IMG/VR virus record: IMGVR_UViG_3300049811_000081
Location: 1-64,000 of that record
Length of the DNA: 64,000 nucleotides
Origin: a virus
Reading direction: 5' to 3' (one strand)
The notes beneath the pieces are model-generated. The model did no database searches. It was not told where the DNA came from and saw only the letters and a program-made list of their open reading frames with translations. Both the position numbers and the translations under genes were made by a program. Shown here piece after piece: positions 1,789-35,699 of the stretch; position 1 is the first letter of the stretch, and the number at the start of each line of letters is the position of its first letter.

Positions 1789-2043
1789 TCACGACAAAAA
1801 TTTATCTACACTGGAGCGCAAATACGTGGAATTTGTTCTTATTTCTAGTATTCCGATATGTTGATCGAAGAAATCTTCCTGACCATAAATGGTCACATAG
1901 ACATCCCAAAATACGGAGACCAGTTTTCTTTGTCTTAGTTCATTAAACCAGTTATCCAACATACATAACTGGTCTCCGTTCCTTATGACATCTCGGTATT
2001 GTTTAATGAACTCCATGATGAGTTCCTCATTAGTTATTACCAT
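1789..2043 (-). CDS. Array paralogue 1
   Basis: TNEELIMEFIKQYR..ELRQRKL..VYVTIYG. Confidence 0.85.
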   Translation of the reverse strand: MVITNEELIMEFIKQYRDVIRNGDQLCMLDNWFNELRQRKLVSVFWDVYVTIYGQEDFFDQHIGILEIRTNSTYLRSSVDKFLS

Positions 2044-2329
2044 AGGGATAGTTTATCATCGTCAACACATTAGTACAAGAATCATCGATTATATATAATT
2101 GAAAATATAACTCGTTAGCTGCCTTATCCCATTTACCATATAAAATCGTATATATTTTCGCAAATTCCTTACGCAAATTTCTGAGACCTAATTCAGAATA
2201 TAGTTTAAAAATGGGAGTCTCTTTATGACTTAAACAATTGGTTACCCATTTTTTTCTCGGTTTATGTAATTCGGTTTTGAATTCCTTCATAAATGCCATG
2301 ATGATTTCCTCATCTGATAGTTTATTCAT
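2030..2329 (-). CDS. Array paralogue 2
   Basis: LSDEEIIMAFMKEFK..LYSELGLRNL..IYTILYG. Confidence 0.85.
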   Translation of the reverse strand: MNKLSDEEIIMAFMKEFKTELHKPRKKWVTNCLSHKETPIFKLYSELGLRNLRKEFAKIYTILYGKWDKAANELYFQLYIIDDSCTNVLTMINYPYGNN

Positions 2330-2570
2330 TTGCTATCATATTTAAATCTAAGACATGGAGAAAGTCATGAATAAAATAGCTCTTACCATATAATATGGTA
2401 TAGATTTCCACAAATGTATTTACCAAACCTCTGTTATAAAGCTCTTTAAACCCACAATTAAGATCAGGCAGATCTTCATAATGGACTAAAAAACCGTGGA
2501 AATCCTTTAGGAATTTACGGAAATCCCTTACGAAATTCATCAGGACTTCCTCATCACTCATATTATTCAT
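2322..2570 (-). CDS. Array paralogue 3
   Basis: MSDEEVLMNFVRDFR..ELYNRGLVNTFVEIYTILYG. Confidence 0.85.
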   Translation of the reverse strand: MNNMSDEEVLMNFVRDFRKFLKDFHGFLVHYEDLPDLNCGFKELYNRGLVNTFVEIYTILYGKSYFIHDFLHVLDLNMIANE

Positions 2571-2576
2571 TTGCTA

Positions 2577-2822
2577 TCATAGGTTAGGGTTTCCATACAT
2601 CTGAATATCACAATATTTAAATTCTAGCGTCCATAGTAGGTCTTTGATGGAATCCCGATTACCATAAAGGGTATCATGTATTTTCACAAATGTATTCAGC
2701 AATCCTCTTTTTCTGATTTCCGCATATAATTCATGACAAACAGGGGATGCAACACAAAGATACGTATTTCTGAATTCCTTTAAGAATTCCATGATGACTT
2801 CCTCGTCTGATAGTTTATTCAT
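2577..2822 (-). CDS. Array paralogue 4
   Basis: LSDEEVIMEFLKEFR..LYAEIRKRGL..IHDTLYG. Confidence 0.85.
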   Translation of the reverse strand: MNKLSDEEVIMEFLKEFRNTYLCVASPVCHELYAEIRKRGLLNTFVKIHDTLYGNRDSIKDLLWTLEFKYCDIQMYGNPNL

Positions 2823-3054
2823 ATCTACTTAGTCTAATACTTCTCTCCATACCACGAACATATTTAGTCACACCATCATCACGATATAGTATATCATATG
2901 TTTTATACAATATATGATAGATAAACCTTTCTCTGGTTTCCATATATAAACGAATTCCGTATGGCGTGATTACTTTTTCATAACCATATATCCTGATTTC
3001 CTTTATGAACGCCATTATGACTTCCTCATCGGTCATTTGAAATAGTTTCTTCAT
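2815..3054 (-). CDS. Array paralogue 5
   Basis: MTDEEVIMAFIKEIR..LYMETRER..TYDILY. Confidence 0.85.
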   Translation of the reverse strand: MKKLFQMTDEEVIMAFIKEIRIYGYEKVITPYGIRLYMETRERFIYHILYKTYDILYRDDGVTKYVRGMERSIRLSRYE

Positions 3055-3340
3055 TGTTTCGATTACGTATCATGGTTTCAAATAAATTTAATTTTAATCT
3101 CATATCTAACAAATTTACGTATTCACGAGTTAATCCGCTCCCATATAATGAAATATAGATTTCCACAAATGTATTTACCAAATCCCTGTCATATAGTTCT
3201 TTAAAACTGTTATCAAGAACGGATAGATCTTCCAAATCTCCTTTCTTAATAAAGGTTGTTCTATTTATATAATCACGATATTCCTTTAGGAATTTCATAA
3301 GGACTTCCTCGTTTGTTAATATTTGTACTCCAATATCCAT
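3026..3340 (-). CDS. Array paralogue 6
   Basis: LTNEEVLMKFLKEYR..ELYDRDLVNTFVEIYISLYG. Confidence 0.85.
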   Translation of the reverse strand: MDIGVQILTNEEVLMKFLKEYRDYINRTTFIKKGDLEDLSVLDNSFKELYDRDLVNTFVEIYISLYGSGLTREYVNLLDMRLKLNLFETMIRNRNNEETISNDR

Positions 3341-3546
3341 AATAGATCATTTGTTACATCACTCCTGCCATAAAGGGTGCCATATATTTCCACAAATGTA
3401 TTTACCAAACCCCTGTTTCTCAATTCCCCATATAAATATAATTCATGACAATTATAAAGATCATTTTGGTTATAATCCAATTTTCTGAATTCCTTTAGGA
3501 ACTCCATCAGGACTTCTTCATCCCGTAAGTTAAAGAGGTTCTTCAC
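3316..3546 (-). CDS. Array paralogue 7
   Basis: RDEEVLMEFLKEFR..LYGELRNRGLVNTFVEIYGTLYG. Confidence 0.85.
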   Translation of the reverse strand: MKNLFNLRDEEVLMEFLKEFRKLDYNQNDLYNCHELYLYGELRNRGLVNTFVEIYGTLYGRSDVTNDLLWILEYKY

Positions 3547-3866
3547 GTAAACGTTTTATCTCCAACAGATTCAGGACTGTCTCCATATAACAAATTACGC
3601 AAACGTCTTATCTCTAACAGATTCAGGACTCTCTCCACATATAGGATTTCCCTCACATATCTGATATCCACATTTTGATGATATAATATAAAATAGATTT
3701 CTTTGAAGACATCCACAAGACCTCTTTCATGGATTTCATTATATTTATTCCGAAGGTCTTCGCTGACACCATAAATGGGTCCACCCCCGAGCAAGAGGAT
3801 TTCATGCCGAAACTCCACAATGAATTCCGCCAGGACTTCCTCATTTAATGCCTCAGATTTTACCAT
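3543..3866 (-). CDS. Array paralogue 8
   Basis: LNEEVLAEFIVEFR..EIHERGL..IYFILY. Confidence 0.85.
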   Translation of the reverse strand: MVKSEALNEEVLAEFIVEFRHEILLLGGGPIYGVSEDLRNKYNEIHERGLVDVFKEIYFILYHQNVDIRYVREILYVERVLNLLEIRRLRNLLYGDSPESVGDKTFT

Positions 3867-4111
3867 AATATCTCCTCCGTTCTTCTTCTATTCATTATTG
3901 AATATAATTTATAAGTCTTAATGTAGATATCATCACCCTCATTATATAATAAATTATAAATCCTTATGCAAGTATCTCGCAAACCCCTATTATATAATTC
4001 ACCGTAGTATATATTCAGGTCAAAAGCGTCGGGATGTTCGTATTGGTGGTAATCCAACATCCGGTATTCCTTTATAAACGCCATTATGAGTTCCTCGTTG
4101 CTCATCCGCAT
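3860..4111 (-). CDS. Array paralogue 9
   Basis: MSNEELIMAFIKEYR..ELYNRGL..IYNLLY. Confidence 0.85.
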   Translation of the reverse strand: MRMSNEELIMAFIKEYRMLDYHQYEHPDAFDLNIYYGELYNRGLRDTCIRIYNLLYNEGDDIYIKTYKLYSIMNRRRTEEILW

Positions 4112-4374
4112 ATGGATCTGTTAATTACGGCATGGAGTTCATTTTTGGTCATGGCATAATGCAACTCCCATATGTCATTAAGAATGTCTTTATTGTAACC
4201 ATATAATAACATATATAACATCGGAATATTTTTGGTTAATTTCTTCTTCCACATTACCTCATAACGGGAAACCAAATCATCGGGAGGATCGGTTTGGGTG
4301 GTAACCGACCAATTGTGTAGTTCCCTTATGAACTCCATAATGAGTTCTTCATTTGATGACTTATTTTTTTCCAT
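4102..4374 (-). CDS. Array paralogue 10
   Basis: SNEELIMEFIREL..LYMLLYG. Confidence 0.8.
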   Translation of the reverse strand: MEKNKSSNEELIMEFIRELHNWSVTTQTDPPDDLVSRYEVMWKKKLTKNIPMLYMLLYGYNKDILNDIWELHYAMTKNELHAVINRSICG

Positions 4375-4591
4375 ATAAAATGTTACCGATTTTTAATGCC
4401 GAACCATATAAACCCCTGTTTTGTAGTTCCGTTGTTATGGTGAGATCAGTACATTCCATCAATAGTAATATTCTATCCCATGTGGACAAATGTATATTTC
4501 TTTCCACTCTTTTACAATAGGTTTTGTACTCATTCAAATATGTCATAATGAGCTCCTCATCACCCAATGAATTAATCAATTCGTCAATCAT
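4361..4591 (-). CDS. Array paralogue 11
   Basis: GDEELIMTYLNEYK..ELQNRGL..ILYG. Confidence 0.8.
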   Translation of the reverse strand: MIDELINSLGDEELIMTYLNEYKTYCKRVERNIHLSTWDRILLLMECTDLTITTELQNRGLYGSALKIGNILYGKK

Positions 4592-4884
4592 TGTATAAGT
4601 CTTGGTTTAAGTTTCAAATTTCCCATAACGTTATCAAAATATTTATATCTTAACTCATTTAATACGATCTGAGCTTTCCGATCCCAAGAACCATATATGA
4701 TTTTATATAATTCCACAAACTGTTTTTTCAAACTCCTTATATTCAAATCAACATATAAGATATAAATGTCAGAATATGTGTCGTATCTATATGCAACGTC
4801 CCTGATATTCTTTAAGGCATTGAATTCCATTCGGAATTCTTTCATGAAAGCCATTATGGTCTCTTCGTTTGATAAATTACCCAT
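4588..4884 (-). CDS. Array paralogue 12
   Basis: LSNEETIMAFMKEFR..LYKIIYG. Confidence 0.85.
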   Translation of the reverse strand: MGNLSNEETIMAFMKEFRMEFNALKNIRDVAYRYDTYSDIYILYVDLNIRSLKKQFVELYKIIYGSWDRKAQIVLNELRYKYFDNVMGNLKLKPRLIQ

Positions 4885-5167
4885 GTCGATATGTGTGATA
4901 TCCGCGAATGAAATAATCTATGTCACCCATTATAATCCTCTCGGTATTTAGGTCATCCCAACCATATATGGTTACATATATATCATTAAAAGTATTTAAC
5001 AATGATTTTCTCACCATTTTATCATATAATTCCAAAATACGGTCACTGGGTTTAACAAAGGTGCTAATACCCATATTTCTTCGTTTCGGAACTTCCGTTC
5101 TGATTTCCTTTATGAACTCCATAATGAGTACCTCATCCAATAAAAATGCTCTATTCTCCAACATCAA
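4877..5167 (-). CDS. Array paralogue 13
   Basis: DEVLIMEFIKEIR..IYVTIYG. Confidence 0.8.
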   Translation of the reverse strand: MMLENRAFLLDEVLIMEFIKEIRTEVPKRRNMGISTFVKPSDRILELYDKMVRKSLLNTFNDIYVTIYGWDDLNTERIIMGDIDYFIRGYHTYRHG

Positions 5168-5405
5168 ATATTCTTGACTTGATTAAACCATTATAGAACA
5201 CCCTCTCAACGGCATCTACATATTTGGTCACTATGACATCACCATATAATATCTGATATGTTTTAAACATTTCAATAAAAACAGTTCTTTGCGCGATCTC
5301 CGCGTATAGAAATAATCCATATTCCTCAACTCGTTGATTATGGATAAACATCCTGATTTCCTTTATGAACCCCATAATGACCTCCTCGTTTGATAACTTA
5401 CCCAT
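5151..5405 (-). CDS. Array paralogue 14
   Basis: LSNEEVIMGFIKEIR..LYAEIAQR..TYQILYG. Confidence 0.85.
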   Translation of the reverse strand: MGKLSNEEVIMGFIKEIRMFIHNQRVEEYGLFLYAEIAQRTVFIEMFKTYQILYGDVIVTKYVDAVERVFYNGLIKSRIFDVGE

Positions 5406-5631
5406 GCAAAAAAATCCAAATTAATTTAGGATACAATGTTTTGTATATATTGATCGCCGTTTCCAATAAACCCCTCTTCCCCAATTCCCTTACGATCTCA
5501 TTATAGAAATTCCTATCGTTCACGTTAAATCTATTCTGCGTTCTTTCCATGTGCATGAAACGAATTATCAATTCCTCATTGGATAATTTGAGACAGATCT
5601 CAATGATGTCCATATTTGAAAGTTTATTCAT
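5398..5631 (-). CDS. Array paralogue 15 (start refined to MNKLSN)
   Basis: LSNEELIIRFMHMER..ELGKRGL..IYKTLYP. Confidence 0.8.
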   Translation of the reverse strand: MNKLSNMDIIEICLKLSNEELIIRFMHMERTQNRFNVNDRNFYNEIVRELGKRGLLETAINIYKTLYPKLIWIFLHG

Positions 5632-5869
5632 TCTTAAAAGGAAACCTTCGTATTTTACAAAGACAATCAATATACTTAATGACTTCGTAATCGTCATGAT
5701 ATAGTATTCCGTATAATGTGTCAAATTTTTGGTAAACATATCTTTTCATGAGTTCATGATATAAATCAATACCGTATTTTCTAACGTATTGATCATGCAC
5801 AAATATCCTAACCTCCCTTATGAACTCCATAATGAGATCCTCATCACTTAATTTATTGATTTTATCCAT
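5624..5869 (-). CDS. Array paralogue 16
   Basis: LSDEDLIMEFIREVR..LYHELMKR..LYGILY. Confidence 0.85.
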   Translation of the reverse strand: MDKINKLSDEDLIMEFIREVRIFVHDQYVRKYGIDLYHELMKRYVYQKFDTLYGILYHDDYEVIKYIDCLCKIRRFPFKNE

Positions 5870-6113
5870 ACGAATCCATTGATCTCATTATATCCATGTT
5901 ACGAATATACTTAATTAATTCTTTATCCCCATATAATACCCGATATATATCACTCATTTTGTGGTAAATGTATCTTCCCCATATTTCCGAATATAAATCA
6001 GTCCCATATTGTTTGATGTGTCGTGACCGAATATACATCCTGACCTCCTTTATGAACTCCACAATGAGCTCAGCATCACTTAATTTATAGATCTCTTTCA
6101 TTGACGACAACAT
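5862..6113 (-). CDS. Array paralogue 17
   Basis: LSDAELIVEFIKEVR..IYRVLYG. Confidence 0.85.
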   Translation of the reverse strand: MLSSMKEIYKLSDAELIVEFIKEVRMYIRSRHIKQYGTDLYSEIWGRYIYHKMSDIYRVLYGDKELIKYIRNMDIMRSMDSYG

Positions 6114-6116
6114 TTA

Positions 6117-6233
6117 TTATCTCAATACGAGATGACCATCTTCTATTATTCTGGTTTTGCGGAACACCCTGGTTTCGGTTATGAACGCATAAACCAACTC
6201 CTCCCTATCCGATATATGGGCTATATACTCCAT
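6117..6233 (-). pseudogene. Truncated array paralogue (38 aa, helix 1 only)
   Basis: Manual translation MEYIAHISDREELVYAFITETRVFRKTRIIEDGHLVLR*; lacks the ELxxR and LYG helices. Confidence 0.6.
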
Positions 6234-6465
6234 CTCCAATCAATTGGTTTTGCAAATGATATATGTATATGTTAAAATAAACCCAATACTGATCCTCATA
6301 TAATGCCTTATATACATTAATGTAATCATTATAGATATTCTTCTCAATTAATAACCCCCTCATATCCACATGTTGTTTATTTACGCGTTTATGGATCAAA
6401 TATGATCTGGTTTCCTTAATGAATTCCATAATGAGATCTTCATTGGAGATTTCACCACATTTCAT
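6205..6465 (-). CDS. Array paralogue 18
   Basis: ISNEDLIMEFIKETR..VYKALY. Confidence 0.85.
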   Translation of the reverse strand: MKCGEISNEDLIMEFIKETRSYLIHKRVNKQHVDMRGLLIEKNIYNDYINVYKALYEDQYWVYFNIYIYHLQNQLIGDGVYSPYIG

Positions 6466-6707
6466 AATGGATAGTATTTTAGTCTTACCAATATCCTGAT
6501 CTCTGTGAGATTAAGACCATAAATGATTTCATATATTTGTTTGAAATCAATATATAATTCCCTACGCATTAATTCACGGTACATCATCCTCAAATGATGA
6601 TCAGGGAGATAATTTCTTTGAGGTTCTAATTCCCATATGTATTTCACTTCCTCCCGTAAATTCTTAATGAATTCCATGATGACCTGTTCGTTACTTAATT
6701 CCTTCAT
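6462..6707 (-). CDS. Array paralogue 19
   Basis: LSNEQVIMEFIKNLR..YRELMRREL..IYEIIYG. Confidence 0.85.
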   Translation of the reverse strand: MKELSNEQVIMEFIKNLREEVKYIWELEPQRNYLPDHHLRMMYRELMRRELYIDFKQIYEIIYGLNLTEIRILVRLKYYPL

Positions 6708-6957
6708 AAACGTCTATTGAAGACCAACATTCCTCTCCATCTAACCAATATTTCATTATTTTGAGAATAAATTCATCTATCAGGGTATCATCATACATGG
6801 CACGATATAACCACTCACACTCCTTATATAGATTATTACCCATGATTTCAACATGTAGATCAAAATGATAAGGTCTCAGGATTTTATCCTTCCCGAACGC
6901 CCTCATTTGTCCAATGAATTCCATAATCAGTTCCTCGTTTGACATATCCCGAACCAT
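6691..6957 (-). CDS. Array paralogue 20
   Basis: MSNEELIMEFIGQMR..LYRAMY. Confidence 0.85.
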   Translation of the reverse strand: MVRDMSNEELIMEFIGQMRAFGKDKILRPYHFDLHVEIMGNNLYKECEWLYRAMYDDTLIDEFILKIMKYWLDGEECWSSIDVYEGIK

Positions 6958-7156
6958 TTTTAAAAACTATCGCACAAGTAAAATCAATACACCAATTATC
7001 ACCATATAAGACATGATATAATTCCCAATAATCCCCATACATATCGTTTTCACACAATTCCTTATATAGTTCAAAATGAAAATCCTCCACGATTTGGTTT
7101 TTGGTGAACTTTCTGGTTTCCACAATGAATTCCATTATGACATAGATATCCGTCAT
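6884..7156 (-). CDS. Array paralogue 21
   Basis: VIMEFIVETR..LYKEL..LYHVLYG. Confidence 0.8.
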   Translation of the reverse strand: MTDIYVIMEFIVETRKFTKNQIVEDFHFELYKELCENDMYGDYWELYHVLYGDNWCIDFTCAIVFKNGSGYVKRGTDYGIHWTNEGVREG

Positions 7157-7368
7157 TGTTCTAACCCCCTTAGTTCATGCATCAACCATAACATACTACC
7201 ATTTATAAAAACATGTTCGGGATAAAGAACATAAAATAACCTCATGGTGGTTACAACCAACCCCCTTCTGTGTAACTCCTTATAGAGCTCAAAATAATCT
7301 CCCTTATACATTGAACCTAAATTCAATTCCATTTTAATGAACTTCATAATAATCTCCTCGTCTGTCAT
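7153..7368 (-). CDS. Array paralogue 22 (start refined to MTDEE)
   Basis: MTDEEIIMKFIKME..LYKELHRRGL..FYVLYP. Confidence 0.8.
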   Translation of the reverse strand: MTDEEIIMKFIKMELNLGSMYKGDYFELYKELHRRGLVVTTMRLFYVLYPEHVFINGSMLWLMHELRGLEQ

Positions 7369-7529
7369 TTGAAATATAGTATTCTGTAAATGTCCATCGC
7401 TGTTCCGAAAAGTTTTCTGATCACCAGTTCTCGACAAATATGACCATATTCTGGATCATAACCGAGCTCCAATTTATTTGCTTTGCGTTCAAATTCCAAA
7501 AACCTCACTATGAGTTCTTCATCCGTCAT
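7365..7529 (-). CDS. Array paralogue 23 (54 aa, absent from the ORF track)
   Basis: Manual translation MTDEELIVRFLEFERKANKLELGYDPEYGHICRELVIRKLFGTAMDIYRILYFK; ATGA overlaps at both ends. Confidence 0.8.
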   Translation of the reverse strand: MTDEELIVRFLEFERKANKLELGYDPEYGHICRELVIRKLFGTAMDIYRILYFK

Positions 7530-7780
7530 AATCTTTTCATTCTATTTTTTTCCGCTAGTACATTTATGCTATAAAATAAAAGTGAATAAATATATTTATG
7601 ACACAAATCATCACCATATAATGCCTTATATACGTCACAATATGTGTCCTCAAAACGTCGATAACAGATCTCATCATAGATATCCTCATCGTAATCACTC
7701 AGGGTCGTTTCATTAACCCACCGTCTGGTTTGCAAAATGAACTCCATAATGAGTTTCTCGTTTGTCATAGATATAACCAT
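7526..7780 (-). CDS. Array paralogue 24
   Basis: MTNEKLIMEFILQTR..EICYRR..VYKALYG. Confidence 0.85.
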   Translation of the reverse strand: MVISMTNEKLIMEFILQTRRWVNETTLSDYDEDIYDEICYRRFEDTYCDVYKALYGDDLCHKYIYSLLFYSINVLAEKNRMKRL

Positions 7781-7974
7781 AGAATTGTGTGTATTGGGAC
7801 TTGTTCCCCGTAAAGTGTTTGATATATGGCAAAAGAAAGTCTCAACAAATTCCTATCCCCCAACTTTCTTGCAATTTTCAGAATTTCTGAATCTCTGTTA
7901 ATAATGGGTGGCACATTTCTGAGTTGATACATGAATTCCATTATGAGTTTCTCGTTTGATGTTCTCATCTCCAT
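7765..7974 (-). CDS. Array paralogue 25
   Basis: SNEKLIMEFMYQLR..DRNL..IYQTLYG. Confidence 0.85.
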   Translation of the reverse strand: MEMRTSNEKLIMEFMYQLRNVPPIINRDSEILKIARKLGDRNLLRLSFAIYQTLYGEQVPIHTILWLYL

Positions 7975-8213
7975 AATCTCTGTGAATAATGAAACAGGCT
8001 CGACGGAGAAAAACTGTGATTTGGATATAGGGTCTCAAATATTTCATAAGTGGGTTTAAAAATTCCCCTTCTACGCAATTCCCGAAACAATTTACGATAC
8101 GTCACACCATATCGATTTGGTTCTTCTAAATTCCTCTCCAACCTAATGAACGTCATCATGAGATCCTCATCACTTAATTTTTCCATTTCTTTAAAAGTCT
8201 TCTGCTCTGTCAT
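7965..8213 (-). CDS. Array paralogue 26
   Basis: LSDEDLMMTFIRLER..ELRRRGI..IFETLYP. Confidence 0.85.
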   Translation of the reverse strand: MTEQKTFKEMEKLSDEDLMMTFIRLERNLEEPNRYGVTYRKLFRELRRRGIFKPTYEIFETLYPNHSFSPSSLFHYSQRLWR

Positions 8214-8234
8214 AATTCCTGTTGTAAATTATTA

Positions 8235-8465
8235 CTATCCTTCAACAACTCTTGCATTAAAAAATGCACTAGATGAATGAAACCTATGGTCTGGATACAT
8301 GGCACAAAATATCATATATGTGGGGATCATTAATTCCCTATCAAACAATTCCGCAAATAATACACCATATGATATTCTCGATAGATTTGAATATGGTAAA
8401 TTCCTCTCTATCTTAATGTATTCCATTATGAGTTCTTCATTACTCAATTCTTCCACCTCTCTCAT
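8235..8465 (-). CDS. Array paralogue 27
   Basis: LSNEELIMEYIKIER..ELFDREL..IFCAMYP. Confidence 0.85.
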   Translation of the reverse strand: MREVEELSNEELIMEYIKIERNLPYSNLSRISYGVLFAELFDRELMIPTYMIFCAMYPDHRFHSSSAFFNARVVEG

Positions 8466-8682
8466 CGTTATTGATTTGTCTTAAAGAAAACGGAAAAAAT
8501 GCACTCATTATGGGAATTCTGTGATCTGGATATAACGATCTGAATATTTTATAAGCAACACGAGCAAGTTTCCTATCCCATAACTCCTGATATAACTTAG
8601 AATAGGTTATAGTCAATGTTTTTGATTGTGATAAACCCTTCTCTAAGTTAATGAATTCCATGATAAGCTCTTCATTACCCAT
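8440..8682 (-). CDS. Array paralogue 28
   Basis: NEELIMEFINLEK..LYQELWDRKL..IFRSLYP. Confidence 0.85.
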   Translation of the reverse strand: MGNEELIMEFINLEKGLSQSKTLTITYSKLYQELWDRKLARVAYKIFRSLYPDHRIPIMSAFFPFSLRQINNDERGGRIE

Positions 8683-8707
8683 AAACCATAAATAAAACCA
8701 AATTTAG

Positions 8708-9022
8708 TTAATATTTTCGAGATTTCCAAAAAAATATGGGTGTTTCTATTATATGGGTCTCTGTAATAATCAATCTATGGAACATGTTCTCCCACCGAAT
8801 TTCCTCAATTGCACCCAAATACGGAGCATATGATGGGACCCCATCATATATGATCTCATATATCTGTATGAAAGTTTCGAAAATACCCCTCTCGTTGGAT
8901 ACATCAATTAACAACAAGTCATTATAGGTGACTTTACATTTAAAACCCAAGTAACGTCTTGTTCTCAAAATGAGTGTCATTATTACCTCTTCATCCGAAA
9001 GATTTTCTATTTTATCACTCAT
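8708..9022 (-). CDS. Array paralogue 29
   Basis: LSDEEVIMTLILRTR..ERGI..IYEIIY. Confidence 0.8.
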   Translation of the reverse strand: MSDKIENLSDEEVIMTLILRTRRYLGFKCKVTYNDLLLIDVSNERGIFETFIQIYEIIYDGVPSYAPYLGAIEEIRWENMFHRLIITETHIIETPIFFWKSRKY

Positions 9023-9273
9023 ATCAAGAATTGTAAGATATACCTATAAAACCTCCAGCAATGAGATTTCCCATATAAGGTTTTATATATTTCCTCATAT
9101 TCGAAATAAAGTTCCCTGTCACATATATCATTAAAAAGATCGATAACATGATTACTACATCTGTGTGTAATATATTCACTATTGACCCAATTTCTGGTTT
9201 CCTTAATGAATTCCATTATCAAAACTTCATTACTGATATCGTTATCGCCGCGGGTCTGGATCCCATTGTTCAT
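9019..9273 (-). CDS. Array paralogue 30
   Basis: ISNEVLIMEFIKETR..DREL..IYKTLYG. Confidence 0.85.
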   Translation of the reverse strand: MNNGIQTRGDNDISNEVLIMEFIKETRNWVNSEYITHRCSNHVIDLFNDICDRELYFEYEEIYKTLYGKSHCWRFYRYILQFLI

Positions 9274-9484
9274 CCCAACGTGTTATTAATTCAAAGATTA
9301 AAGTGTCACTTTCATAGTCATCATATAAGATATTGTATACTTTGTGGAATTCATCAAACATAGATCTATCATACAACTCTCTATATAAGACAAAATGTCC
9401 GGGTTTAATAATTTTATGTTGGATATAGTTTCTGGTTTCTTTTAGGAATTCTATAATGAGTTCCTCACGGGTTAAATTATTCAT
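9242..9484 (-). CDS. Array paralogue 31
   Basis: LTREELIIEFLKETR..LYRELYDR..VYNILY. Confidence 0.85.
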   Translation of the reverse strand: MNNLTREELIIEFLKETRNYIQHKIIKPGHFVLYRELYDRSMFDEFHKVYNILYDDYESDTLIFELITRWDEQWDPDPRR

Positions 9485-9752
9485 ACTGACTTCTATTGAA
9501 TTTACGGTCTATGTCAAACCATATTATTTGTTTTGCATCCTTATACCCATATAGTATTTTATATATTTTTGTTGCGATTTTATATAAATCTCTTTCATGT
9601 AGAACAAAATATATTTCCTGAAGAAAATCTGGTGCAAGGATTATTGTAAGTTTTTCCCTCAACGACCATTCCATGAGCCTATTTTTCTCCATGATGTAGG
9701 AAACTACCAATTCCTCATCCGACATTTGTTTAATGTTCCTAATTTCATCCAT
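9477..9752 (-). CDS. Array paralogue 32
   Basis: MSDEELVVSYIMEK..ERDL..IYKILYG. Confidence 0.8.
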   Translation of the reverse strand: MDEIRNIKQMSDEELVVSYIMEKNRLMEWSLREKLTIILAPDFLQEIYFVLHERDLYKIATKIYKILYGYKDAKQIIWFDIDRKFNRSQYE

Positions 9753-9945
9753 AAAATTTTTGTATGTCTTCTGGATACAACTTTGAATAAACCCAATAGA
9801 ATTGAAACATCAATTTCCTGTTTCTTATTTGCATTTGGATATGACCATATTCATACATGAAATCGGGAGGTAAAGGTTCTTCATTTCTTTTTCGATATGC
9901 CCTGTCGTATTTAATTGCCTCGAAAATGAGTTCTTCTTTTGTCAC
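9745..9945 (-). CDS. Array paralogue 33
   Basis: MTKEELIFEAIKYDR..IRNRKL..VYSKLYP. Confidence 0.8.
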   Translation of the reverse strand: MTKEELIFEAIKYDRAYRKRNEEPLPPDFMYEYGHIQMQIRNRKLMFQFYWVYSKLYPEDIQKFYG

Positions 9946-10159
9946 CGTATAATGTTTTATATATTTTTATTGCTGTGTCAAGATAACCCTCACTTCTTAA
10001 TGCATAAAGTATTCGTTCTATTCTCCGCATTCTTTCGTTTTGATCATTGTGATAATCCGGTGATGTATTTAATAACCTGAATTCCCTGATAAATGACATT
10101 ATCAGATCTTCCCGATATGTATATTCCACATATTCCTTTTCCACACTTTGTTTTTTCAA
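9911..10159 (-). CDS. Array paralogue 34
   Basis: REDLIMSFIREFR..IYKTLYG. Confidence 0.75.
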   Translation of the reverse strand: MKKQSVEKEYVEYTYREDLIMSFIREFRLLNTSPDYHNDQNERMRRIERILYALRSEGYLDTAIKIYKTLYGDKRRTHFRGN

Positions 10160-10164
10160 ATATA
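10157..10164 (-). promoter_or_regulatory. Possible Bacteroidota -7 element (TATATTTG) inside the array
   Basis: caaatata on + strand at the short AT-rich gap between paralogues 35 and 34; no clear -33 TTTG. Confidence 0.4.
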
Positions 10165-10188
10165 CTAAAAAAATCTATAATATATTCC

Positions 10189-10407
10189 TTATTTCTGATG
10201 TTTGTTATATAAAGTAAAATATATTTTGTAAAATTGGATATAAAGACCCCTATCCGACAATTTTTTTCTTGTATTATAAATACACTTCATTTCCGCGGTT
10301 AATTGTTCATAAGAGTTAAGAGCGCTAAAATATGTGGTATCAAATTTTCTTCTTTGTTTTATTGCATATATAACGAGATCAACATCATTCAATTCATCTA
10401 AATTCAT
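10189..10407 (-). CDS. Array paralogue 35 (start refined to MNLDEL)
   Basis: LNDVDLVIYAIKQRR..LSDRGL..IYFTLY. Confidence 0.75.
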   Translation of the reverse strand: MNLDELNDVDLVIYAIKQRRKFDTTYFSALNSYEQLTAEMKCIYNTRKKLSDRGLYIQFYKIYFTLYNKHQK

Positions 10408-10411
10408 ATAT

Positions 10412-10639
10412 TTATCTTTTTTGATAAAGGGCTCGGTAGATACTAAAAAAGGTTCTATCAATTCTTCTATCTTCCAATATTCGCTGTAAATAATCAATGC
10501 ATTTAACCAGGTGAGTTAATTCCTCCCATGAAAAATATTTTAGATTATGGATATATTCTCTTTTCTTATGAATAAGAAGAATTATGAGTTCTTCATCACT
10601 CATTTTAGGAGCAACCATAGAGGTCATAGTAGTAACCAT
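10412..10639 (-). CDS. Array paralogue 36
   Basis: MSDEELIILLIHKKR..LEDRRI..IYRALY. Confidence 0.8.
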   Translation of the reverse strand: MVTTMTSMVAPKMSDEELIILLIHKKREYIHNLKYFSWEELTHLVKCIDYLQRILEDRRIDRTFFSIYRALYQKR

Positions 10640-10823
10640 TTAATATTTTGGAAATTTTTATTTGTTCCAACAACAACCCTCTTCTGTGTATCTCCTGATA
10701 TAATTCCATAAAATAATTTTCATATTTCGGATTTGGTTTATCGGTTCTAAATTTTTCCTCATACTTTTTTTCTTCCCTGATAAAAGTCATGATAAGAACT
10801 TCATTGCTCATATCTTTTACCAT
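10605..10823 (-). CDS. Array paralogue 37 (first transcribed)
   Basis: MSNEVLIMTFIREEK..LYQEIHRRGL. Confidence 0.85.
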   Translation of the reverse strand: MVKDMSNEVLIMTFIREEKKYEEKFRTDKPNPKYENYFMELYQEIHRRGLLLEQIKISKILNGYYYDLYGCS

Positions 10824-10826
10824 ACA

Positions 10827-11501
10827 TTAGTTTATTTTATCAAAATTTACACCTTCCGAATAATACCCATTACTTTCCCCCAACCATTTTATCGTCACGT
10901 AACCCTTAACAGTTGCGAGTTTGTAGAATGTCCATGTGAAACTATCATATAGGTTTCTTCCGAAACGATCTGTCGAATTTGTTACTTCTTCCGCTTGTGT
11001 TATTGGGGAATTCAATAAATCATTTAAATCACCCTCGATGTCGTCAATTAAAACCGATTCACAACAGTCTTGGATATGGTGCATCAAATATTGGGAACCA
11101 TCACTGGTTATGATTTTCAACCTATCTACACCGTTATTTATTTCGGTGATGGTTTTTCCCAATAGTTGCGCAATACCTTTGGTGTTATTATTCTCAGTCA
11201 TGGATGTTTTTGTTTCTAATGTGCAAAATAATTTGCAGAAGTAATCCGCGATTTTTATTGATTGTTTTTCGAATGGTTCACGAAAATCCAGATCTGTTAC
11301 TTTATCTTGAAAATATGGGTAATCTAAATCTGAAATTCTTATGGTACTCGAATGAATTCCCGAAAAGCACGCCAATTCAAAATGATCTTCTCCTATGTAG
11401 AGTTCAATAGCATCACCATCTGGACACCAGTAATCTGCCGTCCATATTTGAAAATCATTTGTTGTTTTTACATGTCTCCAGTTTGGATCTTCCGTTATCA
11501 T
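10827..11501 (-). CDS. Conserved phage hypothetical protein; C-terminal HxQDCCE..SNGYYSE domain
   Basis: HHIQDCCESV..DLNDL..TWTFYKLAT.KG.VTIKW.GESNGYYSE, a motif recurrent in large phages. Confidence 0.6.
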   Translation of the reverse strand: MITEDPNWRHVKTTNDFQIWTADYWCPDGDAIELYIGEDHFELACFSGIHSSTIRISDLDYPYFQDKVTDLDFREPFEKQSIKIADYFCKLFCTLETKTSMTENNNTKGIAQLLGKTITEINNGVDRLKIITSDGSQYLMHHIQDCCESVLIDDIEGDLNDLLNSPITQAEEVTNSTDRFGRNLYDSFTWTFYKLATVKGYVTIKWLGESNGYYSEGVNFDKIN

Positions 11502-14500
11502 GGTTTGTTTTTCTTATTTAAGTAGTAATGCAATTTGAAAAGAAGAACATATAACCATTTTGGTTTCCTGTAATGGAAATGGTAATTTAATTTCCGATGA
11601 GGATACGACCAATGATATCCAACGTTTAACTCAAACATGGTTTTTTCAAACAACTCATCAACCAATTCCTGATCTGTTAATTCAAAAATGTCCATCATCA
11701 GATCCTCACTCCAAGAATGATAATTCTCATCCTCGTATTCCTTTTCCACCATTTCATCTTCGGACTCGTGATTTATTTTGAAATAACTGATCCTATTATT
11801 AAAAATACATAGACCTTCGCGATGAAGGTCGTAATGATCTTTAATGAAAAAGAATTTAACTTTTTCGTATGGTATTGCGTCAATGTGTTTCATTAATCCA
11901 AATTTATTAATGTAGGATCTTCTATGACTTCCCATTCGAGGGCTTCCTTCAGGTCTTCAACAAAAACGGGATGAACCCTTGTTGATTTTCCCGATAACCA
12001 AACACCCTTTTCCCATTGCGATTTCCATGTTCCAATTTTCCCTTCGGGGGTTTTGACAATAACGGACCCCATATTTGTTCCACTTGACAGATCTTTGACT
12101 TTCATGATTATTTTTTTTTTAATTACCATTTTTCAATTTTGTTTTCAAGAGTTCTCAACATAAATTCACCAAATGGTGTTAATTCATTTGTCCAATCTAA
12201 CTTTACTAATCCTATTGTTTGAAGAGCAATGAGGTATTCGTTATCGGGAGCGGCAACATATTCCTTACCACTACCGATTTTTTTTAATACATTATACAAT
12301 ATTTTTTCTGTCATAATTCGTTGGGTTATTTGGTTCCGTATTCCATCACATATTTTTTCGCACTCTCTCTGTCGTTTGTCCAATCCTCACCCGACCAATC
12401 CGAAGTGACACTCCCATTTACCTTATCGATCATGACACAAAGAAGTTCCTTTTGTCGAGGAGTATCCTCCTGCAACATAGCACTGAAACTCGAACCAATC
12501 TCCATGTATTCTTTCAGCGCTTCAAAAGCTTCGGGACTGTTTGTGAAATCATACCCCTTTAATGTACCCCATTTCAAGAGCAAAAAATCATTATTTTCTT
12601 CCATGACTATTTGTTTTATATTTTACATGTAATATACCATATACCCTTCGTTTTTGTTAACGATGGCTTGCATAAGGTCTCCCCATGCTCTCCATGAAAA
12701 CCCAATATTTTGTCCATCTGAGAATGAAAATAAGGTATCGTTAGCCTTTCTATCCGCGGTCTCACCAACCCATCCCAGTTTCTCAATGGCTTCTCTAATC
12801 AGAAGTATATGTGGTTGGAATTCTTCTTTGAAATCAGAAAGATAGTCATCCCAAGAAGGGTTTCTGTCGTCCCCACCAAATAATGGTGTGTAGTTTTCTT
12901 CAACATCCTTGGTGTCAGTAACGGTCAATTCCAAACCGTTTTCGTTTTTGAGTTTTATGAATTCCATGTGGTTGATTATTTTTCCATGTTTAAGATAAAA
13001 GTTCTTTCACTCTCCATCCCGCAACTTTGTGTGTATACTGATCTGGAATAATACCCGCAACATAATGAAATGAATGGGTAATATCGTTATCTGATGGGTA
13101 ATTGTGGTAGCTAATTTGGAGGCATATAAATTGTCCAGGTTTTACCAACCTAATGGCGACACCAGGACTACCAACAGTTTTTGTTATTTGATTAATTATT
13201 TTCATTTTTAAGTTTTATGAATTCCATAATTAATTTTATTTAACGTGGAATATATATTTCACCATGTTTTAATTCAGTTAAAAAATACCATTCGTCTTCC
13301 CATTCTCTTCGACCACCACCATTTAGGAGATGATTTATGAAATCATCATTCCCACCAATTATTTCTTTTAATTCATTCTGTGTTGGTTTGTTTTCAAACA
13401 CACAAACAAGATAGTCCCCAAACTGATCGTATTCATTCACTGCCTGTGTTACTACCCACATAATGACCTCCTATTCATTTACCAGAGAATTGCATCGATA
13501 TGATTTTCCATTACTGTCCCTCCATATGCTGCGACAATTAAGTTTATTAATTGCGTCACCATATATGTTATGACAAAATTCAAGGTTCAGATCAATACAT
13601 TCTTGTATGGTCAACACACCAAACTCTTTCTTGATCCACATTTTAATTTTCTTTATCATCATTTCACTTTTCAAACCAAATAAAAATTACCCAAAAAATC
13701 ATTTTAAAAAGATCTTTTGTTTTCTGTAGTTCCCACCCAACAAACATCGTTGCGAAGAACCCACCAATTAAATATAATAAAATCACAAATATTGATAAAA
13801 TAAGTGTGACCATAATTATTCGTCATTTTCTACTATTAATAATCCCATTCTTTTCAGTTCTTCATTAAAATGGATAAATGCGTACCTAATCTTTTTTAAA
13901 TCAACAAAGTCATAACGCATTAACCATGCATCAAAATTCATATAGTTTGTGTATCCGTTAGGGGTATCTTTATCAACAAATTGGATTGCGATTTTATCCC
14001 TATCTATTTTAAATCCTTTAAACTTAAAAACATAGGTGCCTATCATACAATATTTACCAATGATGTCTTTATACTCATCGTTTAGTTTATTGAACTCTTT
14101 TTCAAGGTCGATAAGTTTTTCTTCTTTTGATTTAAACAGTTTCATCTTTGCATTTTATTTTTGGCAATATTAATCAGTTTTTCGGTTGCGTTGTTTTCAT
14201 GAATATTGACATCCACCCCAAATATTCTAAAAGCAAATCCTTTAATGTATTTATACCTTTTAAACCTCCACATCCATTTATGGATATTGTCTATGGTAAA
14301 ATATTGTGTTGGGACGTAATTAATCCTTATTTTCATTTTTATGTTTATTTAACGAGATTACCCCAATATAAATCGGTATGTACAGTCACAACATCTCCCC
14401 CTCCGCAACAATTTGATCCATATATTTGACATCCACCATATCTCAGTTCTTCTTCACAGACACTTTTCACAACAAAAACTTTATTATCATCAATCCATTC

Positions 14501-17188: not shown

Positions 17189-17572
17189 TCATATTAAATT
17201 GTTTAAGATGTAATCAAATGCCTGTGAGTAAGCTTCTTGTGGTGTAAATCCATCAATATCGAAATGATTATTCATAGGTTCATGATTAGATCCTAATTCT
17301 ATCTTTTCTATAGCAACATTATACCAAATTTTATTTTGGTCATGACCAAGATAAATACTAATCCAAATACCATGATTAACCCTTAACCATTCTACTACTT
17401 GCCATTGTTCAGGTGCTGATTGTATATTTTCAAATCTATTATAGTTATAAGGAACTCCAATAGCTTCTTCCCAACCGTCTTTGTTTTTAAAAACAGTTTT
17501 TACTTCTACATCAAATCCTTTCTCCTTTAGTTTCTTTGCTTGTTCAAAGCTAATATATGTTGGATTTATCAT
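17189..17572 (-). CDS. KEF.PY.EALELKELGFDEPC family, divergent copy
   Basis: YISFEQAKKLKEKGFD..SAPEQWQVVEWLR. Confidence 0.65.
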   Translation of the reverse strand: MINPTYISFEQAKKLKEKGFDVEVKTVFKNKDGWEEAIGVPYNYNRFENIQSAPEQWQVVEWLRVNHGIWISIYLGHDQNKIWYNVAIEKIELGSNHEPMNNHFDIDGFTPQEAYSQAFDYILNNLI

Positions 17573-17979
17573 TGTTTTGATTTTAGAATATTAATCATTT
17601 GTTTTAAACATGCGAGTTCGGCATCTTCATATAATTCATATCGACCCAAAGAATGTGAATAATCCACCCACTTGATTTCACAAAAATATCCCCTCATCGT
17701 TGATTGATACATCGTTAAGGGATTAATATGATGATACAGTTTATGTTTTTCCCTGAACCACTTGAACGCCTGTTGATGAAGTGGCGATCCAACTAATACT
17801 GTACTGGCATTTTTTTGTATACTCGGATAAAATAAACCAAAATGAATTGTGTCGGGACCAATCACCGTACCCATAGGATAAAATGTTTTATCACCATCAT
17901 AATATGCCAAACAAGGTTCATCAAACCCCAGTTCTTTGAGTTCTAATGCTTCCTGATATGGTATAAATTCTTTTTCCAT
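17569..17979 (-). CDS. KEF.PY.EALELKELGFDEPC family protein
   Basis: Shared N-terminus, PLxQQAFKWFREKH and AELACLK motifs. Confidence 0.75.
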   Translation of the reverse strand: MEKEFIPYQEALELKELGFDEPCLAYYDGDKTFYPMGTVIGPDTIHFGLFYPSIQKNASTVLVGSPLHQQAFKWFREKHKLYHHINPLTMYQSTMRGYFCEIKWVDYSHSLGRYELYEDAELACLKQMINILKSKQ

Positions 17980-18361
17980 TTTAATAACTTGGTATTATAA
18001 TGCAGTTTTTATATTTCTTGTTTCTGATGTTGATTGCTCCCTTTAATGTTTTTCTGGTATCAACAATCACAACACCACCTTTGATGGTGGTAACAACATC
18101 ATCACAGGTTACGGGATCAATGCCATGACTTATATTTGTGTCAGAAACACCTCTTATTATAAGGTATTGTGTTGGGTTTGCGTTCATTTTGTTTTAGGGT
18201 GTGACGTTGAAAAATTTGTGACGGTTTTATCATTGTACCCTTGTAACCAATACCATTCTGCAATAATATTTTTATATGGATTAGAATTTATTTCATATCC
18301 ATTATGCTTCGCTTCTTTTCCTTGCAAGTAAGCGATTTTATTATGGTATGCAATGGTTTTA

Positions 18362-18757
18362 TTATGTTGATTTTTTGTTTTCATATTTGACAATTTCAAT
18401 GAGTTTTTTGAGACATGATATTTCCGCTTCCTCATAGGAAACAAAAGTCCCCAAAGGGGACAACCTCTCCCACTTTCCGACATTGTTATCGTTATTCCAC
18501 TTATAGATAGATACTTTATATCCTCCCATAGAAGATGAATGGGATATGTACCCTTTGATCATATGCTTCTCTCTGAACCACTTGAACGCCTGTTGATAGA
18601 GTGGAGCCGAGACATAAACCAGACTTTTATTGTGATTACCAAGTTGCAATCCATTATATAAACCTATATCATCCCAATACCAAGTGAAACATGGTTCATC
18701 AAACCCAAGTTCTTTGAGTTCTAGTGCTTCCTGATATGGAACAAATTCTTTTGTCAT
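18362..18757 (-). CDS. KEF.PY.EALELKELGFDEPC family protein
   Basis: Same motifs. Confidence 0.75.
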   Translation of the reverse strand: MTKEFVPYQEALELKELGFDEPCFTWYWDDIGLYNGLQLGNHNKSLVYVSAPLYQQAFKWFREKHMIKGYISHSSSMGGYKVSIYKWNNDNNVGKWERLSPLGTFVSYEEAEISCLKKLIEIVKYENKKST

Positions 18758-19070
18758 AAAACTATTTTAATTCCAATAAATCGTTTCTTTAAGATCTTCA
18801 ACCCTATTCATCCCTTTTGCAAATTTCAAAACCAATTCAGATGCTTCTTCTATTGAATCGACCTTAAATCTATACACTTCATGGTCTGAATAGTGCATAG
18901 ATGTAAAGCTTACCGTCATATTTTCGAATGAAAAAGATGCTTGCCACATATCAGATAATGAACCAATATATATTACATATAATGGACCATAGGGGTCAGC
19001 ATCAAATGTTGGTCTTATTATTTGCCAGTTTAATGGTTCACAAGAAACCATTTCAATATTGTTCTTTGTT

Positions 19071-19457
19071 CTATATGTTTCCATTTTTAACAATTTCAAT
19101 GAGTTTTTTGAGACAAGCTAATCGTGCCTTATCTGTGTCAAAACAATCTTGGGGATTTTCAAAAATCACTCCGTTACGACCAATCCTCCAACTATCAATT
19201 GCGTATTCGATATCGAGAATTTCATTACTGTTACAGATGACATCACGAGAAACATATAGAGAATGTTTATCTTCAAACCATCTGAATGTTTGTTGGTACA
19301 ACGGAGCATCAATATGGGGTGTTCTCGGACGAGCCACCCAGGTCGGGGTGGGGTGTAATTCCATGTCATATCTTGTCCACACCGCAAAACATGGTTCATC
19401 AAATCCCAATTCTTTGAGTTCTAATGCTTCCTGATATGGAACAAATTCTTTATTCAT
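19071..19457 (-). CDS. KEF.PY.EALELKELGFDEPC family protein
   Basis: Same motifs. Confidence 0.75.
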   Translation of the reverse strand: MNKEFVPYQEALELKELGFDEPCFAVWTRYDMELHPTPTWVARPRTPHIDAPLYQQTFRWFEDKHSLYVSRDVICNSNEILDIEYAIDSWRIGRNGVIFENPQDCFDTDKARLACLKKLIEIVKNGNI

Positions 19458-19843
19458 TTCTTGTATTTTACGTTTCCACTCTTTGTTGAGATATCACCAC
19501 CAACATCATTACAATTAACATTACCTGACATTGTTTCCACATCACCACTCACATTACCTGTAATGTCTACATTACCACTTTGGGTCTTGACATAACCAAC
19601 ATCACCATTTATGATTGCCTTATTACAGGCATCAACACTTAACTGAGTAACGTCTCCATCAACATTAATGTTGATTTCTTTGGTGTTGGGAGTGACATCA
19701 ATACCATCAATGATGACCTTTCCGTTCATTACCGAAATACTATTCCCCAAATAAGTGTTTCCATTAATTGTGAATGATGCCATATTGTTTATTTTATGTT
19801 TTCGATTGAATAAGAGTTTTCTACAATATCTTGTGCTCCGCAA
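19454..19843 (-). CDS. Beta-solenoid repeat protein (DUF4097-like)
   Basis: Repeated GDV.T.SGNV units. Confidence 0.6.
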   Translation of the reverse strand: MRSTRYCRKLLFNRKHKINNMASFTINGNTYLGNSISVMNGKVIIDGIDVTPNTKEININVDGDVTQLSVDACNKAIINGDVGYVKTQSGNVDITGNVSGDVETMSGNVNCNDVGGDISTKSGNVKYKK

Positions 19844-26329: not shown

Positions 26330-26677
26330 TTAAGAAATTTTCTCATTCAATTTTCTATTTTTGAAATGTTCTATTATACTTTTTTCCATAAAAATAAACG
26401 CATCGATATCACGGATATTGAAGATATTTAAATCAAGCCGTTCACAAACTTGTTTTGTTATAAATCTTTGTGTTTCTTCCCATGTCATATTAAATTCCTC
26501 AAGAAAAACATCAAAAACATTTTTTCTAGAACATGCTATTTGAAAATATTGATGAAGGAAAATTTCAAAATAGAGTTCTTTATTTTTAAATAAAAAAACA
26601 AATTCTGGATATCTATCGAAATCCATTTTGGCATGCAGACCTGACCATATTTCATTAAATCGTTCTTGTTTCGTCAT
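26330..26677 (-). CDS. FNEIWSGL family protein (start refined)
   Basis: MTKQERFNEIWSGL..DFDRYP..FLFK. Confidence 0.6.
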   Translation of the reverse strand: MTKQERFNEIWSGLHAKMDFDRYPEFVFLFKNKELYFEIFLHQYFQIACSRKNVFDVFLEEFNMTWEETQRFITKQVCERLDLNIFNIRDIDAFIFMEKSIIEHFKNRKLNEKIS

Positions 26678-26972
26678 TAAAATATTTTTCAGCATGAAGA
26701 ATACTGTCCTTACCACAAGGATATGGCTTAATATTTTTAATACCTAAACGTTGTTGTACTTGATCTTTTATAAAGTATTTAAATTTAAGATCTTCCATAT
26801 TAAAAATTTTGGAGACATTATCATCTGAATATGATAAGTACCGACTTTTTAAATTAAGTCCAAAATAGTATTTATTTTTTTTAAAAAAAAACACTTTATT
26901 TGGAGCAACATTAAAATCTAATTTAATTATTAACCCTAACCACATTTCGTTAAATTTTTCTTCCTTTGACAT
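26655..26972 (-). CDS. FNEIWSGL family protein (start refined)
   Basis: MSKEEKFNEMWLGL..DF..FFFK. Confidence 0.6.
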   Translation of the reverse strand: MSKEEKFNEMWLGLIIKLDFNVAPNKVFFFKKNKYYFGLNLKSRYLSYSDDNVSKIFNMEDLKFKYFIKDQVQQRLGIKNIKPYPCGKDSILHAEKYFNDETRTI

Positions 26973-32146: not shown

Positions 32147-32152
32147 GTTTTA

Positions 32153-35695: not shown

Positions 35696-35699
35696 TTTA

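Follow-up and report, generated by a model that had tools for sequence, protein, structure and literature searches.

Large arrays of small paralogous genes are a notable part of jumbo phage genomes, and none of them has an assigned function. Among the systems closest to the one studied here are the internal proteins IPI, IPII, and IPIII of phage T4, which Mullaney and Black reportedly described in 1996 as carrying a capsid targeting sequence. These defence-countering proteins are diverse and share only this 10-residue N-terminal sequence, in which residues 8 and 10 (I and E) govern processing (PMC3012670, PMC9026906). Paralogue family B of the Salmonella giant phage SPN3US and the inner-head paralogues of phiKZ are lineage-specific and have 2 to 20 members depending on the phage (PMC5694885). 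Finally, the jumbo phages G and 121Q have tandem arrays of more than 30 genes that were read as the result of tandem duplication (Hua et al. 2017, mBio, PMC5646251). Here, we analyze an array of 38 small paralogous genes on the minus strand (1789-10823) of a viral contig of 110,304 bases, IMG/VR virus record IMGVR_UViG_3300049811_000081. The stretch studied, hereafter the window, comprises 64,000 nucleotides, from position 1 to 64,000 of this record. An initial annotation of the window recognized no named family with this arrangement. The arrangement itself is not unprecedented, since the jumbo phages G and 121Q likewise carry a single gene in over 30 tandem copies. However, the copies in those phages are "very similar" (PMC5646251), whereas the present ones are ancient, with 26% identity. 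We detected no sequence relation to G or 121Q, either among PHROG families, where no array copy has a match at E≤0.001, or in a tblastn search of two copies against 50,697 GenBank phage records, which returned nothing at E≤0.01. The SPN3US and phiKZ paralogues, for which no sequence relation to the array was found either, are virion proteins identified by mass spectrometry. The array is a new family within a jumbo-phage feature that is already known.

In the list of open reading frames, small genes follow each other without interruption on the minus strand between 10823 and 1789, and their 38 translations align as a single family. A profile built from the aligned copies matches exactly 38 places in the whole contig, all of them in this run and on this strand. 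They correspond to 37 full-length copies (54-107 residues) and one truncated copy of 40 residues (6117-6239), arranged head-to-tail with no unrelated gene between them, as the initial annotation had described. Coding sequence makes up 99% of the 9,035 bases of the array. Most junctions between copies are overlaps of 4 to 35 bases, often in the form of an ATGA stop/start, which suggests that there is one long transcript, possibly with linked translation. At the base composition of the array a stop is expected approximately every 12 codons, and the probability of finding 3,106 open codons by chance is around 1e-122. Therefore, the open frames cannot be due to chance. The array is not an assembly artefact either, a possibility considered in the initial annotation, since it is matched with zero differences by contigs of three wetland metagenome runs that differ in sample and study, and a subsurface metagenome run contains pieces of a variant that is approximately 95% identical. 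Among the sequencing runs, no RNA run was listed with a stretch of the array.

The copies have in common a first helix with the motif S/T-[DN]-E-E-L-I-M-E-F-I-K-E-x-R, followed by a loop of variable length, the motif L-Y-x-E-L-x-x-R-x-L, the motif I-Y-x-x-L-Y-[GP], and a variable tail, in agreement with the scaffold of three motifs proposed initially. The entropy of the alignment columns is 0.2-1.5 bits in the three motifs and exceeds 3 bits in the loop and the tail. Pairwise identity among copies averages 26% and reaches at most 57% (copies 32 and 35, numbered in the direction of transcription). Across copies, the conserved serines are written with both AGY and TCN codons, the arginines with AGR and CGN, and the leucines with TTR and CTN. 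The use of both codon families at these positions means that synonymous sites are saturated and that the protein is what is conserved. Neighbouring copies are more alike than random pairs (0.287 vs. 0.261, p=0.0005), and copies three genes apart are marginally so (p=0.03). Such similarity is what remains of old duplications, in tandem or of small blocks, and does not point to a recent accordion. The expansion by gene accordion that had been suggested thus does not fit copies that are ancient, 26% identical, and scrambled at synonymous sites. As for selection for diversity, also suggested before, it is unmeasurable at this divergence, and the comparison with the 95% identical subsurface strain points in the other direction: the two differ by 16 synonymous and 13 non-synonymous changes. 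Without constraint, about three replacements per silent change would be expected as a rule of thumb. The polymorphism suggests purifying selection, with the reservation that the counts are low and were obtained from contigs of low depth. The genes of the array are real, old, and under purifying selection at the level of the protein. Their products vary widely in net charge (from -8 to +4) and isoelectric point (from 4.6 to 9.4), and in none of them did we see a hydrophobic leader or membrane segment. Mimicry of DNA was considered and rejected because the copies are not uniformly acidic.

We propose, with a probability of about 0.42 for the two parts taken jointly, that the array is a multigene family of one jumbo-phage lineage of wetlands with a probable Bacteroidota host, and that its most likely function would be that of a set of small binding modules which act in the cytoplasm during host takeover or counter-defence. 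The repertoire of binders or inhibitors put forward in the initial annotation is likewise an inference. One ancestral gene, encoding a soluble, all-helical protein of around 80 residues, would have been tandemly duplicated long ago to give the 38 overlapping genes on the same strand. Selection maintains the residues of a hydrophobic core, namely L-I-M-x-F-I of helix 1, L-Y-x-x-L of helix 2, and I-Y-x-x-L-Y of helix 3, together with a few polar ones (E19, R30, R80, and Y94). Surface charge, the C-terminal helix or tail, and the loop that joins helices 1 and 2 vary freely from copy to copy. Each copy would recognize a distinct host protein or allele, for instance a component of defence, signalling, or transcription. 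The array lies at the far end of a same-strand block of approximately 60 kilobases (kb) that contains small genes and genes of nucleotide metabolism, and expression of this block probably falls in the early or middle phase of infection. Several observations weigh against this proposal. The early expression is guessed from the neighbouring genes only, no copy resembles a known anti-defence or host-takeover protein, and the lack of a phage relative with the family leaves no view of its co-variation with hosts. Furthermore, the conserved exposed charges, together with the fixed rare codons described below, may point to a common partner or to an element of nucleic acid, which the proposal leaves unexplained. 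If the copies do bind host proteins, they would be a natural library on one scaffold and would offer a view of the host systems that a giant phage must neutralize. The array has merits as a test case, with 38 copies in 9 kb, a small fold predicted with confidence, and constant parts that are clearly set apart from the variable ones, and the probable Bacteroidota host is useful because genetics exist in Flavobacterium.

To describe the fold, we used AlphaFold models of two copies. The model of copy 35 has five helices, a predicted local distance difference test score (pLDDT) of 90, and a predicted template modelling score of 0.79. That of copy 33, whose loop and tail are long, has a pLDDT of 84 and helices at residues 10-28, 40-51, 55-66, and 68-101. 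Both show the same helix order, copy 33 with a lower-confidence loop and one long last helix, but the two predictions come from the same alignment and hence are not independent. Together with the range of isoelectric points, they support the constant helical scaffold with variable loops and tails that was first put forward. A Foldseek search against the Protein Data Bank (PDB) and the BFVD viral models found nothing at E≤0.001, and the VIA wide structural search gave a best Z of 6.7 with generic helical bundles. MEDS, a label given to clusters by the Atlas feature search at 0.83-0.88, was rejected because these values are below the level that shuffled proteins also reach. The predicted models match no specific known fold.

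The searches for relatives by sequence gave a similar picture. None of the 38 proteins has a match of any weight in Pfam, PHROGs, or NCBIfam, and the profile search of PDB sequences gave no match, in line with the initial statement that no named family was recognizable. The full profile search of 1.84 billion representative proteins, the check that had been proposed with a hidden Markov model, returned 42 matches, of which 37 are the window's own genes. A word-indexed protein search found the window's own proteins only. The family was not found in the Tenacibaculum phages PTm1 and PTm5. We also searched for phages with a similar neighbourhood. The gene directly upstream of the array (10827-11501) encodes a DUF7448 domain (phrog_2650), which is common in viral contigs at 45-63% identity and never stands beside the array family there; the 80 loci reached through it contain no family match. 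No relatives were found for a neighbouring gene that encodes 145 residues or for a protein of 608 residues. A phrog_21276 gene led to 27 loci that share with the window only this gene, and the family is absent from five whole IMG/VR records (two of them complete) reached in the same way, so we found no close relative of the phage. The family is also missing from every one of the 107 loci retrieved. As far as sequence comparison can tell, it is an orphan: the public data that were searched contain it in no further phage or virus.

Three of the five other matches of the full profile search are long proteins made of a tandem repeat of approximately 57 residues (P0039, P0041, and P0042). The part of the array proteins that aligns with this repeat, W-x-S-M-S-D-E-E-L-V...G-L-Y-x-x-L-x-R-R-x-L-L-D, runs from helix 1 through the loop to helix 2, with a hhalign probability of 93.7% (E of 2e-7 over 43 columns) and hmmsearch E-values between 6e-6 and 8e-4. 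The repeats are units inside one long, cellular, and uncharacterized protein, whereas the array copies are separate genes. There is no Pfam family for the repeat, and P0042 has unnamed relatives, of which one bears the label Candidatus Micrarchaeota. This weak link with an archaeal repeat may reflect distant homology or only shared helix-capping motifs (S-D-E-E-L where one helix starts and R-R-x-L where the following helix ends). The proteins of this repeat family have up to around 20 tandem units of 57 residues, with ...R-R-K-L-L-D as a variant of the unit end.

CheckV estimates that the contig represents 33% of a complete virus, which for 110 kb implies a jumbo phage of roughly 330 kb. On the same strand as the array there are genes for RtcB, thymidylate synthase, two DNA methyltransferases, and a GIY-YIG homing endonuclease, and the remainder of the contig includes a peptidase and glycosyltransferases. 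The RtcB is most similar to those of two Tenacibaculum jumbo phages, PTm5 and PTm1 (56-59%), with Cellulophaga phages coming next. Across the whole contig, Shine-Dalgarno sequences precede 7% of the genes, which is the background level, and the leaders are rich in A (from -14 to -10 and at -3). A-rich leaders without Shine-Dalgarno are the Bacteroidota style of translation initiation. The host is probably a member of the Bacteroidota, as the initial annotation had assumed, because of the affinity of the RtcB and of these leaders.

The new point of this analysis, and its most original lead, is a set of rare codons that are fixed within the motif E-E-L-I-M-E-F-I-K-E-x-R, where synonymous sites are not free. 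The motif leucine is CTC in 17 of 25 copies, while this codon accounts for 4% of leucine codons genome-wide, and where the column holds valine the codon is GTC in nine of ten cases. The motif phenylalanine is TTC in 26 of 31 copies (22% genome-wide), the lysine AAG in 13 of 19 (20%), and the glutamate GAG in 21 of 35 (19%). Some third positions are as informative as the first and second ones, while the third positions of the isoleucines of the same tract are free. At the level of DNA this results in a pattern with a period of 12 nucleotides, approximately ..GGAr yTCATn, that occurs two to three times in the motif. A 16-nucleotide version of the motif is present 24 times in the window, where 1.4 occurrences are expected, and 23 of them are inside the array. 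The only one outside (13217-13232) lies in the duplicated 5' end of an unrelated gene (12623-12967). This gene starts with M-E-F-I-K-L-K-N-E-N, and its first 33 bases or so are repeated upstream as a stub of 11 codons at 13226; the duplicated head has the codons ATG GAA TTC ATA AAA, as in the array motif. The two copies of approximately 33 nucleotides (12936-12970 and 13200-13232, minus strand) flank an open reading frame for 71 residues (12990-13205) and look like the scar of an insertion or recombination. Various causes of the fixed codons were considered and set aside. The context of the following base does not explain them, recent ancestry or simple gene conversion is unfit because the isoleucine third positions are free, and antisense open reading frames do not fit. 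A candidate RNA hairpin (GAACUC/GAGUUC) is complete in only 3 of the 38 copies, and RNAalifold finds no consensus structure. The fixed codons suggest that a nucleic-acid signal is overlaid on the protein motif in every copy, and this may be a regulator binding site, a signal of the start region, or a recombination patch.

According to an idea that can be put as "one address, many bodies", the constant N-terminal helix and the rare-codon pattern embedded in it would be a shared tag or cis-element for 38 small effector bodies, which it would deliver or co-regulate, each body being matched to a distinct protein of host defence or signalling. The array would then be a far larger analogue of the T4 internal-protein system, with an unrelated fold and in a Bacteroidota phage. 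We consider this unlikely.

Also unlikely is the possibility that the copies are internal virion proteins, loaded into the prohead by an address tag, cut after I-x-E, and injected with the DNA to act against host defences. As in T4, there would be a constant N-terminal segment in front of diverse small bodies (PMC3012670, PMC9026906). The T4 tag MKTYQEFIAE (ipII, ipIII) and the array motif M-E-F-I-K-E both contain E-F-I-x-E, and giant phages are known to carry families of head paralogues with up to 20 members (PMC5694885). Yet, the five residues are all that is shared with the tag, and chance is a likely explanation. The motif of the array is preceded by leaders of 2-18 residues and so is not at the extreme N-terminus, it forms a confident helix in the AlphaFold models (pLDDT of 92-96), and it is conserved jointly with the motifs of helices 2 and 3. 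The consensus can accommodate I-x-E as the (L/I)-x-E site of a prohead protease, but only 58% of the copies have glutamate at the putative cut column. Moreover, the array stands among metabolism genes instead of head genes, and no prohead protease or capsid gene is present on the contig, which covers a third of the genome. The genes of the T4 internal proteins are three and dispersed, whereas the array has 38 in a row with bodies that are homologous to each other.

It is also rather improbable that the copies form mixed oligomers or a lattice with a structural or regulatory role, either among themselves or together with a single phage machine. The conserved polar residues E19, R30, R80, and Y94 could form one shared interface, and tight packing with overlapping stops and starts could link the translation of the copies. 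However, isoelectric points that range from 4.6 to 9.4 would be unusual for equivalent subunits.

We regard as very improbable that the nucleic-acid element in the gene heads is the main selected feature, be it a site for an RNA or DNA regulator or a recombination patch for expansion and shuffling of the array. The idea draws on the fixation of rare codons at specific sites without explanation in the neighbouring bases, and on the excess of the 16-nucleotide motif, whose sole occurrence elsewhere flanks an inserted open reading frame. But conservation of the protein reaches far past the motif, the free isoleucine third positions exclude simple gene conversion, and neither the hairpin nor RNAalifold provides a structure. 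Such an element may nevertheless coexist with any function of the proteins. An equally low probability applies to the array being mostly filler, i.e., redundant or near-neutral tandem duplicates kept to fill a larger headful capsid. Hua et al. propose that tandem duplication made jumbo genomes grow until they were locked to larger capsids (PMC5646251), and one copy is indeed truncated. Against this, neutral copies at 26% identity would have gained stops (the 1e-122 chance given above), 37 of 38 are intact with conserved core residues, and polymorphism is biased to synonymous changes.

Finally, the copies might be inhibitors of histidine kinases similar to Sda. Their N-terminal helical hairpin would dock on the dimerization domain of sensor kinases, with 38 copies to cover the many two-component sensors of a Bacteroidota host. 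The hairpin of copy 35 matches Sda in the KinB-Sda complex (3d36_C) with a Foldseek template modelling (TM) score of 0.78 and 31% identity, and VIA gives a Z of 5.0 with a root-mean-square deviation of 1.9 Å over 42 of 42 residues. Sda clusters are also listed (TM scores of 0.77 and 0.73) when the Atlas is searched with its models of two copies, and Sda recurs in four comparisons in total. In both proteins the first residues are L-S-D-E and the second helix closes with R-[RK]-x-L, with 26-31% identity over the hairpin. However, Sda is a single hairpin of approximately 46 residues, an inhibitor of the sporulation histidine kinase found in Bacillota, whereas the array copies have 54-107 residues, four to five modelled helices (two or three more than Sda), and a loop of variable length, in a phage with a probable Bacteroidota host. 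This explanation is hardly credible and we rejected filing the family under Sda, since PF08970 (cut-off of 22.6 bits) has no match even at E≤10 in the six-frame translation of the contig or in any of the 38 proteins, the profile search of PDB sequences does not list Sda at E≤10, the Foldseek match has an E-value of 6.5 and a probability of 0.28, the long-loop copy does not retrieve Sda, and a two-helix hairpin is the simplest helical motif.

The individual copies, all on the minus strand, are given here in the direction of transcription with their positions, their length in residues, and the E-value of the profile match. The first to be transcribed is copy 1 (10605-10823, 72, 2.7e-17), followed by copy 2 (10412-10639, 75, 1.1e-13). 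Copy 3 (10189-10407, 72, 2.7e-15) is taken from the ATG at 10407, in accordance with the alignment, in a frame that is open to 10497. Copy 4 (9911-10159, 6.1e-15) has 82 residues if the TTG at 10159 is its start. This start is doubtful because in the 95% identical subsurface variant the leader of the gene (10113-10150, 38 bases) carries a stop and a 1-base insertion, in addition to nine substitutions. The leader is far more changed than the neighbouring sequence, and this segment at the annotated start is probably a spacer and not coding. Then come copy 5 (9745-9945, 66, 1.1e-14), with a GTG start, copy 6 (9477-9752, 91, 9.1e-19), copy 7 (9242-9484, 80, 1.3e-23), copy 8 (9019-9273, 84, 3.6e-23), and copy 9 (8708-9022, 104, 4.5e-19), with a long tail. 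A subgroup that has an L-Y-P-D-H end comprises copies 10 (8440-8682, 80, 9.4e-20), 11 (8235-8465, 76, 1.4e-21), and 12 (7965-8213, 82, 6.1e-22), of which the first two are 44% identical.

After copies 13 (7765-7974, 69, 9.6e-18) and 14 (7526-7780, 84, 8.2e-22) lies the shortest intact one, copy 15 (7365-7529, 54, 2.1e-16), which is without a tail. The start of the next gene was corrected to the ATG at 7368, which overlaps the stop of copy 15 as ATGA, giving copy 16 (7153-7368, 71, 1.7e-18). It is followed by copies 17 (6884-7156, 90, 2.6e-23), 18 (6691-6957, 88, 2.1e-20), 19 (6462-6707, 81, 4.2e-20), and 20 (6205-6465, 86, 2.4e-20). The truncated gene is copy 21 (6117-6239, 40, 7.5e-5), which has helix 1 and the loop only and matches positions 1-37 of the profile. 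Downstream are copies 22 (5862-6113, 83, 2.9e-21) and 23 (5624-5869, 81, 2.4e-23), copy 24 (5398-5631, 77, 1.6e-18), taken from the ATG at 5631 in a frame open to 5739, copy 25 (5151-5405, 84, 1.9e-22), and copy 26 (4877-5167, 96, 4.0e-17), with a TTG start. The series continues with copies 27 (4588-4884, 98, 2.8e-17), 28 (4361-4591, 76, 1.4e-15), 29 (4102-4374, 90, 2.6e-22), and 30 (3860-4111, 83, 1.0e-21), and with the longest, copy 31 (3543-3866, 107, 5.4e-17). Copy 32 (3316-3546, 76, 5.1e-24), with a GTG start, has the best match to the profile. The remaining ones are copy 33 (3026-3340, 104, 5.9e-19), the second to be modelled, copy 34 (2815-3054, 79, 3.8e-20), copy 35 (2577-2822, 81, 8.8e-24), the first to be modelled, copies 36 (2322-2570, 82, 1.8e-23) and 37 (2030-2329, 99, 1.2e-21), and the last to be transcribed, copy 38 (1789-2043, 84, 1.4e-22).

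A scan for sigma-70 promoters gave as many matches as expected from shuffled sequences. The array converges with plus-strand genes, among them one for a bPH_2 membrane protein at 39-488, and the sequence in between contains a hairpin that resembles a terminator in both directions (1305-1327). It has a perfect G+C-rich stem of 10 base pairs and runs of T on both strands, and it is probably the end of the array transcript. The window also contains other, smaller families of paralogues. One of five members has representatives in 26330-27014, 31694-32149, and 35324-35704 of the window and in 71795-72127 of the contig, one of four members occupies 28346-28738, 31305-31703, and 46551-47356, and one of three members lies in 17569-19493, all on the same strand as the array. 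These three families are dispersed or in short runs, and the two methyltransferases are paralogues of each other (33382-34185 and 39038-39817).

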